A stretch of 50,974 nt of DNA. It comes from Candidatus Woesebacteria bacterium UBA1430 (GTDB taxonomy: Bacteria > Patescibacteriota > Microgenomatia > UBA8517). The stretch is from positions 2,787 to 53,760 of the forward strand of contig DCTW01000001.1 of NCBI GenBank assembly GCA_002329465.1, written 5' to 3'. The notes beneath the pieces were generated by a model. It was not told the origin of the DNA and did not search any database. It was given only the letters and a program-made list of their open reading frames with translations. The position numbers and the translations under genes were made by a program. This document shows, in pieces, positions 16,552 through 24,067 of the stretch; the stretch's first letter is position 1; the number at the start of each line of letters is the position of its first letter.

Positions 16552-18291
16552 TTACCAGCTCCCCCCACCCCCTCCGCCAAATCCGCCGCCTGCTGAACCG
16601 CCGCCAAATCCAGATCCGCCGGAGCTTTTCGGGCTAGAAGAAATGCTTTTTCCAAATGCGCTGTCCATGCTCCCGATATTCGCAAGAACAATAGCGTTTG
16701 TTCCCCCCACATAAGAAGGCGGAGAAACTCCGAGCTTTTTCATTTCGCTTGCAAGCTTTTTAACGACCCCCAAAGAAATCGCCAGCGGAAGCATCTCTTC
16801 AAAAAACAGCCTCTTTTCATTTATCTCATGCCTCCACTTACCCTTATTGACATAAAAGGCAAGCCCCTTGCCCTGCCTATGCACCGCATACCCCGCGGCA
16901 GTCTTTCTCGGCATCAAAAAGGCAATAGGAAAAGAGATAACGCTAAAAATCCCAAAAACAACAAAAGGCAGATAATTCCCGGTCAAACTATAAAACCAAT
17001 ATATAACAAGCGCCAAAAATACTTCCAATGCGCCCAATTTAAAAATCCACTTAATCCTCACCCTTTCGGGGTTTGTAGGAAAGTACCCGGCTTTGACCAC
17101 TTGTTCGTAAATCCTCTTTTTAAACTCGGGTAAATGTTTATAAAACTTATTCTCAAGCGAGCTTAAAAGCACCTCATCCCCGCCCTCAAAAAGCTTTTCA
17201 TACAAATATTTCTGGTAATCCCGAAGGAGCTTTGTATCCTTTTCTAATTTGATAAATTTATAATCCGTAGTCTTGCCCAAAAATTTTTTCTTGGCAACAA
17301 TTTCCATTTTTAGGAAGCGAAGCCTTGCAAGCTCGGCTATCTCGGCAACCACATCCCTTATATCTACTCGCTCATCAACGACAGTTCCCAGCTCTCCGGG
17401 AGTTACACCATCAAGAGGATAGTAAGAAGTCGGCAAATGTGCCCTCTTAAAAATAGATACCGTTTTAGTAGATTTATCATCCGGCTCGTAATAAACGCTG
17501 TCCGACAAATACCTCTTGTCTCTCCCGTGTTTAAACCAGAAATACAATATATAGAAAAACCCTAAGGGAGCGGCTAAATATCCAAAAAAATTAATAAATC
17601 TCTCTGTTAACCTTTCAATAAACCCCGGAAAAACTAGCTCATTATTCTTATCAAAAGCAACTACAATACTCATATCCCGCCCGTTGCCAAGCGTTTGTCC
17701 TGTCGAAAAGCTAGCCAATTGTGCGTTAACAGTCTGAGAAGTACACTCCTTGCTAGACCCGCTCTCACCGCTATAACATCGGATATCTACGATCCCGGCA
17801 TAATCGGATATAACATTAGCAGTTACATTCTCAACAGGCGCATCCCAGCCGCCGCCAACCACATTCCAGTAAAGTTCATAGTGCTTATCATACGCGATCA
17901 AAATATTTTTAACCCGGTAAGTAATTACATAAAAAACTTCCCCGGAAACCAGCTTCTCAGAATCGCCTATTTTTATAGAAACATAGTCCCCAGATTTACT
18001 AACCTTGTAAGGGATTTCAACCCCCCGCCCATCAGTAACGCTATGAACCGAAAGCTTGCTGTTAATCCTTCTCCCATCGATCTTATAAACACTCGGTATC
18101 TCCCTGTAAATCCCGTGCCTGCTTTCCGAAAAATAAACATCAATCCGTTCAGTAATCAAAAAAGAAGTATCCTTAGAAAGTGTAATATCAGCCTCAAACC
18201 GTCTCACCTCATACCCGCCAAGAGAAGCTTGAACCGGTCTTACAAACCCAAAAAATAAAATAAAAATAAAAAGAGCTAAAATTCTTCGCAT
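16552..18291 (-). CDS. DUF2207-like membrane protein
   Basis: ITERI..HGIYREIP, ELYWNVVG, GELGTVVD, and a Gly-rich C-terminus (GGGFGGGGGGSW). Confidence 0.88.
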   Translation of the reverse strand: MRRILALFIFILFFGFVRPVQASLGGYEVRRFEADITLSKDTSFLITERIDVYFSESRHGIYREIPSVYKIDGRRINSKLSVHSVTDGRGVEIPYKVSKSGDYVSIKIGDSEKLVSGEVFYVITYRVKNILIAYDKHYELYWNVVGGGWDAPVENVTANVISDYAGIVDIRCYSGESGSSKECTSQTVNAQLASFSTGQTLGNGRDMSIVVAFDKNNELVFPGFIERLTERFINFFGYLAAPLGFFYILYFWFKHGRDKRYLSDSVYYEPDDKSTKTVSIFKRAHLPTSYYPLDGVTPGELGTVVDERVDIRDVVAEIAELARLRFLKMEIVAKKKFLGKTTDYKFIKLEKDTKLLRDYQKYLYEKLFEGGDEVLLSSLENKFYKHLPEFKKRIYEQVVKAGYFPTNPERVRIKWIFKLGALEVFLALVIYWFYSLTGNYLPFVVFGIFSVISFPIAFLMPRKTAAGYAVHRQGKGLAFYVNKGKWRHEINEKRLFFEEMLPLAISLGVVKKLASEMKKLGVSPPSYVGGTNAIVLANIGSMDSAFGKSISSSPKSSGGSGFGGGSAGGGFGGGGGGSW

Positions 18292-18312: not shown

Positions 18313-19884
18313 TCATTGGCCATTAATCATCAAGCTTCTAACCACATCTCCGATAAGGCGCACTTTTAAGCTTATATTCCGGATATTTCCGTAAGGCACG
18401 CAAACATCCGAGCAAAGCCCAAGATAAATCCCCTGCACATTTATTTCCTCTCCCAAAATCTCGCCCTTCCCCTCAATTCCCTGCTCTCCTGCATCCGAAT
18501 CGTAAGTAATAATATATTCATATCTTTCAAATTTAGCTACTCCGCCGCCGGTCACTCTAAAGCTTAAATCGGCTCCATCTCTATAAAGATCAAGGTTTGT
18601 TTCAATCGTACTATGCGGATTAGTCCCCGGATTCGGATTATCAAGTATCTCCCAGTCGGTGGCGGAGTTGGTATCAACGCCGGCCGTTTTTCTTGCCATG
18701 GATTTGCCGTCCCCGGTCAAAACCACACCATTACCGCTGCCAAAAGCATAAGAATCATCCCCCCAGCTCACAGCATCGATCTCAAACCCCGACGGATTTT
18801 TAAGTATCAGCCGGTCTCCGCCGTTAGCAAGCCCGTTGCCGATTTTTTGGCCTGTGTAAACACGGATAGCGCTCAAAGGAGGATTAAAGCAGCCCGTATT
18901 CCAAGTATTTGCGGATTTAGAAATCACGGCATATCCGTGTGCAGGAACAGAAACAGAATTGCTATGAATAATTGTCGTATCATTATTATCAGTCAAACTC
19001 CAGTCTTTAAGATCCACATCAAAGCTATTGTTATTGTAAAGCTCCACCCATTCATCAGGGTTTGCTCCCCCGTCATTACCGCAAACGCTACCTACATCAT
19101 AATAAACCTCATTTATCACCACACCTGTTACATCATTCTCCCAGTATCCAGCGGAAAAGCTATTCCCCGAAAGAACTACCTGTGATGCAAAATAAGCCCC
19201 GCTTGTCGCGGCATTAAAGCTTATTACCCCAAAAGTCAAAAAAAATATCTTCAATAAACCAAATTTTTTAAGAAAGCGCTTTATTCCACGCTCAGCCTTT
19301 ATCTCCTCCTCACCGATTGCCTCAACAATCTTCTCCCGTGAAGAAAGCTTACGGCTTCTCCTCTTAACAATAAGCCTTTTTGCCTCGTTTTTAATACTTA
19401 CCATCTCACTGTAAATAATAATAGTTGCAGGAATAATAATTAAAACAATAAGTCCAATCTGTGTCCTTGCAAAATTTACGGCGTACCCAAGTAGCGGCAG
19501 GTGGAAAAAAACTTTTCCGATAATAAGTCCGCGGTCAACACTCTCCGGATCCGCCGTCTCATTCGCATCGCCTTTGGTAACAAATCTCTCCGCGCCCCCC
19601 TCGTCTTTTATCTCCACAATCCTATGTGTTGTAGTGTTTTTAGGCCTTGTTACATCCCTATCCCCCTCCGGCTTAAAAGTAACAATATCCCCCTCGCTGT
19701 AATTAGAAACAGGGCCCACCAAAACAATGCTTCCGGTAGGGATAGCAGGAGACATCGATCCGGACAATACGTTATAAAGCCGGTGCCCTCCGGCAAAATC
19801 AAAAGTAGATAGGCTTGTAAGCCCGGCAATAAGCACGAGAAACAAAAAAACAAGCCAGTAAATTATATTTGTAATTTTTTTCAT
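18313..19884 (-). CDS. Signal peptidase I (SipW-type) fused to internal SipW-type signal peptide and lamin-tail domain
   Basis: VLSGSMSPAIP (catalytic Ser), TTTHRIV, TKGDAN, then TSGAYFASQVVLSGNSFSAGYW, then VVINEVYY..DEWVELYN. Confidence 0.82.
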   Translation of the reverse strand: MKKITNIIYWLVFLFLVLIAGLTSLSTFDFAGGHRLYNVLSGSMSPAIPTGSIVLVGPVSNYSEGDIVTFKPEGDRDVTRPKNTTTHRIVEIKDEGGAERFVTKGDANETADPESVDRGLIIGKVFFHLPLLGYAVNFARTQIGLIVLIIIPATIIIYSEMVSIKNEAKRLIVKRRSRKLSSREKIVEAIGEEEIKAERGIKRFLKKFGLLKIFFLTFGVISFNAATSGAYFASQVVLSGNSFSAGYWENDVTGVVINEVYYDVGSVCGNDGGANPDEWVELYNNNSFDVDLKDWSLTDNNDTTIIHSNSVSVPAHGYAVISKSANTWNTGCFNPPLSAIRVYTGQKIGNGLANGGDRLILKNPSGFEIDAVSWGDDSYAFGSGNGVVLTGDGKSMARKTAGVDTNSATDWEILDNPNPGTNPHSTIETNLDLYRDGADLSFRVTGGGVAKFERYEYIITYDSDAGEQGIEGKGEILGEEINVQGIYLGLCSDVCVPYGNIRNISLKVRLIGDVVRSLMINGQ

Positions 19885-19897
19885 TTAAGCCTTAGTT

Positions 19898-19922
19898 TGT
19901 TGCGCAAATTTCTTGCGCAACA
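19898..19922. promoter_or_regulatory. Hairpin between tasA-like and sipW-fusion genes
   Basis: TGTTGCGCAA-ATTTC-TTGCGCAACA, a perfect 10-bp stem without a U-tract on the coding strand. Confidence 0.6.
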
Positions 19923-19937
19923 TCAAATGCTTAATGC

Positions 19938-20558
19938 TTACTCACTCCATCCAGGATTCTCAGGCTGTGTACCAATACCGATTATATTAAACACAGAACT
20001 CAAACTTTGATAACTATTCCCAGCGGAACTATCAAGCCAAAGCTCAAGCATCCATCTGTGGGATCCTTCCGGATGACTCACTGAACCAAGCAAATTTGGA
20101 TCAGGCACTGCATAATTTGAACCTGCCCCGTTTAGATCCTTCAACCATCCAGATTTTCTAAGCTGCCAATTTCCCCCTGAACATAAAACGGGCGCTGAAA
20201 CCGGATGGGGACATTTATAAAGCCTATATTTAATCTTGTTATAAAGCGATCCGCTTCCACTCGTTAATTGTGCATGCAACCTATATTTAATGGGCGTCGA
20301 AGAATTGGAATGATTATAAACTTCAAAATATGTAGTGTCTTTATTCGATTCTCCGGGCAGCATATTGGTAGCGACTACAGGCACACCATCCGTTGGAAAA
20401 TCTGTTCCATGTCCTTTAATGTCAAACTTAATTGCCCCCGCAGAAGCAAAAGTATTATTTGTCTCGGTATCATTTCCCACATACCAAGCTCTGGTTGACC
20501 CAACTGCCAGGGTGCCGACAAGCGCGATCATCATTAAGCTCATTAATATTCTTTTCAT
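19938..20558 (-). CDS. TasA/CalY-like SipW-cognate secreted protein
   Basis: MKRILMSLMMIALVGTLAVGSTRAWY..DTETNNTFASAG SipW-class signal, NMLPGES motif, SD GGGAGGTGAT. Confidence 0.78.
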   Translation of the reverse strand: MKRILMSLMMIALVGTLAVGSTRAWYVGNDTETNNTFASAGAIKFDIKGHGTDFPTDGVPVVATNMLPGESNKDTTYFEVYNHSNSSTPIKYRLHAQLTSGSGSLYNKIKYRLYKCPHPVSAPVLCSGGNWQLRKSGWLKDLNGAGSNYAVPDPNLLGSVSHPEGSHRWMLELWLDSSAGNSYQSLSSVFNIIGIGTQPENPGWSE

Positions 20559-20588: not shown

Positions 20589-20612
20589 AAAAAAGCCGCC
20601 CTTCGGCGGCTT
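20589..20612 (-). terminator. Intrinsic terminator in the 5' leader of the tasA-like gene
   Basis: AAGCCGCC-GAAG-GGCGGCTT followed by TTTT, about 15 nt upstream of the SD. Confidence 0.8.
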
Positions 20613-20674: not shown

Positions 20675-20703
20675 AATATACTCTGTTAAAAGCACCCTGT
20701 CAA
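20675..20703 (-). promoter_or_regulatory. sigma70 promoter for tasA-like leader
   Basis: TTGACA (20703-20698), 17 nt, TATATT (20680-20675). Confidence 0.75.
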
Positions 20704-23509: not shown

Positions 23510-24067
23510 TTACATACTTTCAGGTACTGCTCTTATGACAAATCTTTTTCTGTCAAAAAGCCCGCTGCAAGTATAAATCGTAAGCACTTCACTCTCTGTA
23601 TTTGAGGCTATTTTTACATCCGAAGGATCTGTTTCAAAAGCGCTCTCAACACGGTATTTATGCACATTTCCGGATCCATCAATAATCTTAATCAAATCAT
23701 CCCTTTTTAAAAATTTTATAGGACCGAAAAGATTATCCCTATTATGCGCGTATAAGAGAATATTTCCCCCTCCTCCCGGATCCGCCGAAATATCAAGGTG
23801 GTTTGCAGCTTTGTCTGACACCTCCCACACGCCGTCAACAATACCCGACTCAACAACCTCAATTTTCAAACCAATTCTCTCAATTTCAATAATATAAGGA
23901 TCATAAGTAATAACTTCTGTCTGCTTCATAGCTTCCCGGTCCGGCGAAACATAAAGCTTTCCAAACTCACGGATACGAAAATAAATTGGAACTGATAGAA
24001 GAATAATTCCGAAAGCTAAAAAGAAAAAATTAGTTCTCTTTGTTTTTGGCAAAAGTTCGTCTGACAC
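23510..24067 (-). CDS. Sortase
   Basis: N-terminal TM and catalytic triad in LYAHN, LTIYTC, RFVIRA. Confidence 0.88.
   Translation of the reverse strand: MSDELLPKTKRTNFFFLAFGIILLSVPIYFRIREFGKLYVSPDREAMKQTEVITYDPYIIEIERIGLKIEVVESGIVDGVWEVSDKAANHLDISADPGGGGNILLYAHNRDNLFGPIKFLKRDDLIKIIDGSGNVHKYRVESAFETDPSDVKIASNTESEVLTIYTCSGLFDRKRFVIRAVPESM

Follow-up and report, generated by a model that had tools for sequence, protein, structure and literature searches.

The locus described here lies in a 50,974-nucleotide stretch of DNA (hereafter the window) from Candidatus Woesebacteria bacterium UBA1430, a member of the candidate phyla radiation (CPR), and consists of two genes that bring together a TasA-like protein, a SipW-like signal peptidase and a lamin tail domain (LTD). 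On the minus strand, which carries all of the features whose window coordinates are given below, an open reading frame (ORF) of 206 amino acids (aa; 19938-20558) is followed after a spacing of 53 nt by one of 523 aa (18313-19884), and a 10-bp RNA hairpin without a U tract (19898-19922) lies between the two. An original prediction, made from the DNA letters, had described both genes and the hairpin; we recovered all three, the hairpin with a minimum free energy of -20.7 kcal/mol (z -3.65). The second ORF encodes peptidase and LTD as a single polypeptide, whose peptidase domain precedes, in this order, a basic loop, a third hydrophobic helix with the features of a signal peptide, a segment resembling the N-terminal strand of TasA-like proteins, the LTD and a C-terminal beta domain.

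A TasA-like protein with a SipW-type signal

The 206-aa protein (19938-20558) is the putative major subunit of the system. It carries a SipW-type signal in residues 1-24, with cleavage predicted in the context T-R-A24|W25-Y, and its mature N-terminus (WYVGNDTETNNTFASAG) is presumed to be a donor strand. Since the protein finds no direct match among the Pfam and NCBIfam models, its family assignment needs a profile. A word-based homologue search gave just 3 proteins and an exhaustive phmmer search was needed, which returned 101 relatives. PF12389, a family of which homologues in Patescibacteria have been noted by Wang et al. (PMC9245690), is matched by 38 of the 55 relatives that were aligned (best E 3.7e-13).

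When the family profile was compared with the PDB, it matched the TasA entries 5of1 (E 2.2e-8) and 8aur (E 3e-8). An AlphaFold2 model of the protein (predicted local distance difference test, pLDDT, 76) was searched against the PDB with Foldseek, and the sole match below 1e-3 was the TasA fibre, 8aur_A (E 5.4e-4, probability 1.0, TM-score about 0.5), which lends moderate support to a TasA-like jelly-roll fold. Among the most conserved positions of the family are F26, two residues past the predicted cleavage site, and T197-Q198, with F26 and Q198 nearly invariant. These two residues correspond, by position or alignment, to F29 and Q232 of TasA, which are among the most conserved residues of the protomer interface there (Roske et al., PMC10151520). 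The profile alignment places the 'AtQ' of the family on the 'ATQ' of TasA, which is Q232 by count from the chain numbering. The family profile, the modelled fold and the conserved interface residues all point to a divergent member of the TasA/camelysin family, as the original prediction had proposed.

A different reading would take the 206-aa protein for a soluble, secreted camelysin-like protein that acts as protease or adhesin; the LTD protein would then be a secreted factor unrelated to it that happens to share its export route. The Pfam name of the family, 'camelysin metallo-endopeptidase', speaks for it. We nevertheless regard it as very improbable: it is the TasA fibre subunit that gives the best matches in both structure and profile, the residues of the TasA interface are the most conserved positions of the family, and the mature N-terminus of the LTD protein, as described below, copies the N-terminal strand of the subunit.

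The peptidase domain and its topology

Residues 1-165 of the 523-aa protein (19390-19884) match the SipW-like, archaeal/endoplasmic reticulum (ER)-type signal peptidase I domain (S26B). The model TIGR02228 (sigpep_I_arch) aligns with residues 2-161 at E 8e-32 and 110.3 bits, against a cut-off of 51.85, while the Bacillus SipW equivalog model NF046067 gives 105.3 bits, under its cut-off of 190; by these scores the domain is SipW-like and not a SipW equivalog. It contains the Ser (SGSMxP), His (THR) and Asp (GDxN) motifs and no catalytic Lys, which is the ER-type S26B set. An alignment of 52 fused homologues has H87 and D106 in every sequence and S43 in nearly all. In the AlphaFold2 model (pLDDT 78.8) the peptidase domain is confident, and the best fold match found by Foldseek is SEC11C/A (human SEC11C, 7p2q_A, E 6e-6). 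The original prediction of a Ser/His-type SipW-like peptidase agrees with these results, and D106 can be added to the Ser and His that it named. From sequence and model, then, we take the domain to be an archaeal/ER-type Ser/His/Asp signal peptidase, predicted to cleave signal peptides.

Hydropathy and the model place the first transmembrane helix (TM1) at residues 7-27, TM2 at about 143-165, a basic loop at 166-210 and a third helix (TM3) ending at A230. The helices of the model itself run from 142 to 180, followed by a low-confidence stretch, and from 192 to 227. The loop (19255-19389) contains 16 Lys/Arg, so that the basic stretch and hydrophobic helix expected ahead of the second signal are indeed present, and the 15 residues before the internal h-region have a net charge of +5. 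Under the positive-inside rule, the 16 Lys/Arg in the loop are consistent with a catalytic domain outside the cell, the loop inside, and everything past the third helix outside again. The loop would be a cytoplasmic linker and would at the same time provide the n-region for an internal signal peptide.

The internal signal and the donor-strand-like segment

The h- and c-regions of the internal signal peptide occupy residues 211-230 (FGLLKIFFLTFGVISFNAATSGA; 19195-19254), with S at position -3 and A at -1. They are followed by a donor-strand-like segment, residues 231-247 (YFASQVVLSGNSFSAGY; 19144-19194), which would become the N-terminus of a released LTD protein. This segment has the motif [YF]-F-x-D...N-x-F-x-A-G, which matches the mature N-termini of TasA-like proteins. 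To look for such signals we used a profile hidden Markov model (HMM) built from the first ~50 residues of 54 TasA-like family members, with the 206-aa protein of the window excluded. Run against 3988 six-frame ORFs from the whole 594-kb assembly, it matched two frames, that of the 206-aa protein (3e-13) and that of the 523-aa protein (2.6e-5; residues 218-247), and the next-best frame had an E-value of 0.14. A second SipW-class signal at this place had been put forward on the original reading, and the site suggested there, 'ATSGA|YF', is the A230|Y231 site predicted here. Mature TasA begins at residue 28 (PMC10151520), and analogy with it would put the cut behind T-R-A24 for the subunit and, for the fusion, between S-G-A230 and Y231-F.

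Further features of the site are those of a signal peptide. The uncharged h- plus c-region is 18 residues long in the window, which equals the median of the N-terminal signals (18). At the 53 internal sites examined in homologues, position -3 is T, S or A in all 53 and position -1 is A or S in all 53, a tally with some circularity in it, since those positions are part of the HMM by which the sites were chosen; +1 is Y or F in 49, +2 is F in 47 and +4 is D in 48. The same -3/-1 rule holds in 23 of 23 N-terminal signals that have aligned residues there. Located ahead of the mature strand, the -3 and -1 residues are of importance for cleavage and for nothing else.

In the AlphaFold2 monomer, residues 227-250 are disordered (pLDDT below 50), and the N-terminus of TapA has likewise been reported to be disordered (PMC10151520). 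TapA initiates TasA filaments in Bacillus; it has an N-terminal donor strand followed by a complete immunoglobulin (Ig) fold, and 14 of its mature residues suffice in vivo (PMC10151520). One relative is of interest in this connection: in genome G011, L012:6709-7545 encodes a 278-aa SipW-like protein with TM3 and the motif (ATYSVLSDREVNVGNTFSVN at residue 231), after which only ~30 residues remain. From its sequence this would reduce the arrangement to its minimum, a peptidase with a donor strand, and it brings to mind that in Bacillus residues 44-57 of TapA are enough by themselves.

The lamin tail domain and the C-terminal domain

The LTD, an Ig-like beta sandwich, spans residues 253-375 (18760-19128) and is matched by PF00932 with E 4.6e-18 and 66 bits, against a gathering cut-off of 34.3, which bears out the lamin-tail domain that had been proposed from the letters. 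A search with HMMs had also been suggested as a check; it returned the S26-type peptidase (TIGR02228) and the LTD, while the SipW-cognate signal, sought in a scan of NCBIfam, went unmatched. In the AlphaFold2 model there is a high-confidence Ig-like block at about 251-420, within which the Ig fold of the LTD has a pLDDT above 85, and Foldseek matched lamin Ig folds (E 3e-5). As a complete Ig-like fold follows the strand, the LTD protein would be unable to accept a strand. By analogy the LTD part is best seen as a functional TapA analogue and not as a member of the TapA family.

The last ~100 residues (421-523; with the stop codon, 18313-18624) form the C-terminal beta domain, another feature of the original prediction. 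It contains two invariant Cys residues in the motif LG.CS..G.C, together with an invariant Y, Y and G, and it is conserved in 18 further proteins, fused and unfused. AlphaFold2 confidence for this domain is low, scans of Pfam and NCBIfam yielded nothing of use, and no match was found among PDB sequences or with the TasA profile, so that the domain is present as described but belongs to no family that we found. In many LTD proteins, and in two peptidase fusions without an LTD, it follows 'NPNPGTNPH' linkers. We consider it a candidate adhesive or tip module. The idea that it might be a strand-accepting TasA-like domain was dropped, as it has neither a PDB sequence match nor a profile relation to the TasA-like family.

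Fused and split forms of the peptidase and its putative substrate

The fusion is widespread among the relatives of the protein. Of its 120 best homologues, 62 combine peptidase and LTD in one chain and 21 combine the peptidase with other C-terminal domains, for example Ig-like or Kre9/KNH-like ones. The remaining 37 have the LTD without the peptidase, and in the 24 of these that were matched by the signal HMM the motif stands at or near the N-terminus; in protein P0009, for instance, its context is ...GSTNS|YFSDTEIVSGNTFRAG. In the fused homologue P0016 (peptidase plus LTD), a camelysin domain begins right past the internal signal. A closed genome of the same genus encodes an orthologue of 522 aa with 90% identity and the same gene order.

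Some of the LTD proteins without a peptidase come from loci in which the same modules are encoded separately. The contigs that encode P0009 and P0038 carry one or more TasA-like genes, a stand-alone SipW-like gene (197 or 221 aa; E about 1e-60 to the peptidase HMM) and an overlapping LTD gene with an N-terminal signal, and the LTD domain of P0009 is 57% identical to that of the window. The fused P0003 and the split P0009 are 85% identical overall, with a mature part that is far more alike than the signal region. At the DNA level, the signal/junction region and the upstream peptidase sequence are strongly diverged between their loci, L016 and L013. A mature part so similar next to a junction so diverged suggests recombination or module exchange at the boundary between peptidase and substrate. 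We rejected a simple frameshift as the difference between fused P0003 and split L013, since the junction DNA is too diverged for a simple indel.

In a tree of the LTD, fused and split forms interleave, with 20 changes from one form to the other, of which well-supported branches force at least 3. We also looked beyond the closest homologues. Among 301 Patescibacteria genomes sampled, 54 have a SipW-type peptidase over the cut-off, and about a quarter of the matches are in ORFs longer than 350 aa. A set of 20 loci drawn from these phylum-wide matches comprised 14 long and 6 short forms. An LTD is present in 9 of the 14 long forms. After 5 of the 6 short forms comes a gene that has the signal at its N-terminus; it overlaps by 4 nt in three cases and encodes an LTD in three. 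In 18 of the 20 loci the region just upstream contains TasA-like genes.

These data also bear on whether the fusion is an artefact of assembly or sequencing, in which a lost stop codon or a frameshift has joined two genes. The existence of split two-gene versions in other lineages speaks for such an error. Against it stand the 62 fused homologues, which come from independent sources, the orthologue in the closed genome, and the form of the fusion itself, which has a 45-residue basic linker that the split forms do not have and a junction that is not one simple indel away from theirs. We consider the chance of an artefact negligible, and the missing stop codon against which the original prediction had cautioned can be set aside. 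The same prediction had counted homologues encoded as two separate genes as evidence against its reading. Such homologues were found, but because they hold the same modules with the signal at the N-terminus of the LTD protein, we take them as supporting it.

A dedicated peptidase

Signal peptidase I of the LepB type was not detected in the assembly, which is 594 kb long and 85% complete; TIGR02227 and PF10502 match the 523-aa ORF alone, and only weakly. This would fit a reading in which the 523-aa enzyme is the general signal peptidase of the cell, equipped with an accessory extracellular domain, and the motif past TM3 is a relic of the fusion. The size of the assembly has to be set against this, as the genome of the same genus has about 900 kb. 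Moreover, a LepB-type enzyme scoring above 150 bits is present in all 30 relatives, among them carriers of the fusion and the same-genus genome, the fusion gene always lies directly downstream of TasA-like genes, and the motif past TM3 is conserved rather than decaying. We give this reading very little weight. It is likewise unlikely that the 523-aa enzyme is the sole signal peptidase of the cell, every relative having a LepB-type enzyme and the assembly being incomplete; the LepB-type gene most likely lies in the missing part. Since 30 of 30 relatives have a separate LepB-type enzyme, the SipW-like enzyme is a second, dedicated one.

Proposed function of the two genes

Taken together, these observations make it probable, in our view, that the two genes form a TasA-type fibre module in which a SipW-like peptidase is fused to a functional analogue of TapA. 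What the data show are the domains, the signals of topology, the motif match, the conserved fusion with its split-gene equivalents and the conserved cleavage rule; what we infer are the cleavage, the polymerisation by donor strands, the location at the tip and the function of the hairpin. The 206-aa major subunit would be exported by the Sec pathway and cut after A24 by the SipW-like peptidase, and the N-terminal strand exposed in this way would, as in TasA, slot into the next subunit to build the polymer. The second gene would supply the dedicated peptidase and a TapA-like starter as a single polypeptide, laid out with the peptidase domain outside, then TM2, the basic cytoplasmic loop and the internal signal peptide, which would place the LTD and the C-terminal domain outside. 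The peptidase domain, acting in cis or from a neighbouring molecule, would cut after S-G-A230 and free a protein of 293 residues, whose N-terminus, YFASQ...NSFSAG, would mimic the donor strand of the subunit. We read the LTD part as the TapA analogue because it combines a strand that mimics the subunit N-terminus with a complete Ig-like fold, which is the logic of TapA.

The freed strand would fill the groove of the first subunit, and with its strand there the LTD protein would prime the fibre and end at the distal tip. In the model of BsaA assembly, new subunits are added at the membrane (PMC11580942), and it is this mode of growth that would carry the starter to the distal end. There the LTD and the Cys-pair domain could bind a target, while the intergenic hairpin would keep peptidase and starter low relative to the subunit. 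Wherever the original prediction was open to computation, the results agreed with it. It had spoken of a self-processing peptidase-tip/anchor polyprotein; of the two roles, we favour by analogy the starter that donates its strand and ends at the distal tip, and do not favour a membrane anchor.

The main rival is that the fusion is never cleaved. In that case the third helix would be a permanent anchor, and the tethered strand would hold the base of the fibre or display the LTD on the surface, with the peptidase doubling as fibre anchor or assembly platform. The uncharged h- plus c-region at internal sites is slightly longer than at N-terminal ones, with a median of 20 compared with 18 and up to 32 residues in some fusions, so some of these helices may be stable anchors. 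In some relatives the signal HMM has weak or absent matches at the junction. The 278-aa relative, with its ~30 residues past the motif, raises the prospect that the strand itself is the functional unit, and TapA and BsaA oligomers have been reported to be membrane-associated (PMC10151520, PMC11580942). Against this, the small-residue rule at -3/-1, which is needed only for cleavage, holds at all 53 internal sites; the switching between fused and split forms among close relatives implies that both yield the same mature product; and the 18 residues of the h- plus c-region in the window are typical of a signal peptide. On these grounds we judge an uncleaved fusion unlikely, although it is the most serious of the alternatives.

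In addition to the long helices and weak junctions of some relatives, several other points count against the proposal of a cleaved starter in a TasA-type module. The motif in the window is degenerate, with A-S-Q in place of the usual S/T-D-x, and because of this the conserved Asp at +4 is missing. When the N-terminal and internal segments were scanned with NCBIfam, the SipW-cognate signal model TIGR04088 was unmatched, short models of this kind being easily filtered out, and Pfam likewise gave no direct match for either signal. The 206-aa protein matches no Pfam or NCBIfam model directly, and PF12389 (Peptidase_M73) is not matched even at E up to 10. Finally, homology of the LTD to TapA was not detected: it gave no PDB sequence match at E up to 0.01, even though TapA entries are present in the PDB.

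A more specific form of the cleaved-starter proposal, which we hold only tentatively and think may well be wrong, is that the fusion is a one-shot primer and the peptidase an assembly platform: each SipW would cut itself in cis and so release exactly one donor-strand starter at the place where subunits are processed. If so, synthesis of the peptidase would set both the number and the position of the fibres, and TasA-type fibres in these minimal cells would need only two genes, with no chaperone, usher or sortase.

Our literature searches turned up neither a SipW-LTD fusion nor a signal peptidase in one chain with its own substrate, and no type I signal peptidase known to us has been described as covalently linked to its substrate by way of an internal signal peptide. 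The initiation of TasA fibres is still a matter of debate, and so is the reason for the coupling of tapA and sipW in Bacillus; fusions of SipW to a TapA-like starter that have evolved repeatedly in nature would be evolutionary evidence, of an independent kind, for joint action of the two at the membrane. If the predicted cleavage takes place, the protein would also offer a compact system in which to compare the cleavage of signal peptides in cis and in trans. CPR bacteria live attached to hosts. The module points to a second type of donor-strand fibre on their surface, besides the Pam pili, and an LTD at the tip of such a fibre would make a candidate attachment factor.

Comparison with known systems

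The closest parallel is the tapA-sipW-tasA operon of B. subtilis. Both systems encode a dedicated ER/archaeal-type signal peptidase beside a subunit of the TasA family, and in both the mature N-terminus of a minor protein imitates the donor strand of the subunit, with a complete Ig-like fold after it. The cleavage context [TS]-x-[AS]|aromatic-F, the F at +2 and the residue equivalent to Q232 are common to the two. The genes for the peptidase and the minor protein are coupled in each, by overlapping stop and start codons in Bacillus (PMC10151520) and by fusion in the window. Both TapA and SipW are associated with the membrane and present in low amounts (PMC10151520). The differences are as follows: in the window the TasA-like gene comes first and the sipW-starter gene second; peptidase and starter are one polypeptide, joined via the cytoplasmic loop and the internal signal peptide; the Ig-like module is an LTD with a Cys-pair domain and no detectable homology to TapA; and the peptidase, which falls below the cut-off of the Bacillus SipW equivalog, belongs to a CPR bacterium with a genome under 1 Mb.

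In C. perfringens, the sipW-bsaA-bsaB-bsaC operon (PMC11580942) also places a SipW gene with remote TasA homologues that assemble by donor-strand exchange, but it has no fusion, and its von Willebrand A-domain partner is absent from the window. BsaA fibres are locked by isopeptide bonds: N35 of the BsaA donor strand forms an intermolecular bond with K74, with E56 catalysing (PMC11580942). A conserved donor-strand Asn is common to BsaA and the window, where the donor strand is a presumed one and the Asn belongs to its N-x-F motif, as N35 in the 206-aa protein (20454-20456, minus strand) and N241 in the 523-aa protein.

The split SipW and LTD operons of Patescibacteria (L013, L015, L033 and L035) contain the same three modules in the same order as the window. 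There the genes are separate, overlapping by a few to ~40 nt, and the signal is at a true N-terminus.

Within the CPR, the Pam pili formed by PamA/PamB (preprint, PMC13278184) are likewise surface filaments built by donor-strand exchange, and they too have been reported in Microgenomatia. The pilins, compared here by description, are two-domain proteins of 39-55 kDa with membrane-anchored chaperones resembling FimC/PapD, and this architecture differs from that of the window. We considered whether the Pam paper was a prior description of the present system, but it concerns a different one and mentions no signal peptidase, TasA or LTD (PMC13278184).

SipA of S. pyogenes (4n31), which is among the fold matches, provides another case of an S26-fold protein dedicated to a surface-fibre pathway. 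It is not known to retain the catalytic residues and works with sortase-assembled pili, in contrast to the enzyme of the window, which keeps S43, H87 and D106. In the depositors' title of PDB entry 4n31, SipA is called a signal peptidase homologue essential for pilus polymerisation.

Transcription signals and neighbouring genes

Upstream of the TasA-like gene lies a promoter-like site, TTGACA-17-TATATT (20675-20703), which agrees with the consensus at 11 of 12 positions in a consensus scan; this match makes it the likely promoter of the operon. The leader of the same gene contains a terminator-like hairpin at 20593-20612. In the same-genus genome, an 11-bp hairpin occupies the same place as the intergenic hairpin of the window, with one compensatory change from C-G to U-A. 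The intergenic hairpin is probably a partial terminator or an mRNA-stability element that sets a high ratio of subunit to peptidase.

A gene for a DUF2207 membrane protein (16552-18291) begins 21 nt past the fusion gene, and there is no terminator-like site between the two. The same-genus genome shares this position, whereas relatives further away do not, and from this arrangement it may be co-transcribed without being part of the fibre module. In three relatives, a gene for a protein of 316-407 aa lies directly after the LTD-encoding gene (L013:3296-4378 and L015:5294-6244, both split, and L016:1550-2773, fused), and in the window the DUF2207 gene takes this position. The proteins from L013 and L015 have an ordinary signal peptide, indicating secretion, an N-terminal Cys pair and a 'PGDS..KTL.IKN' stretch that resembles the TasA-like motif 'PG....V.N'.

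A sortase gene (23510-24067) lies within a few kb of the TasA-like/SipW cluster. Sortase genes are also found near the cluster in 6 of the 11 loci of relatives that were scanned (L003, L005, L006, L007, L010 and L015), and this repeated proximity suggests a recurrent island of genes for the processing of surface proteins.

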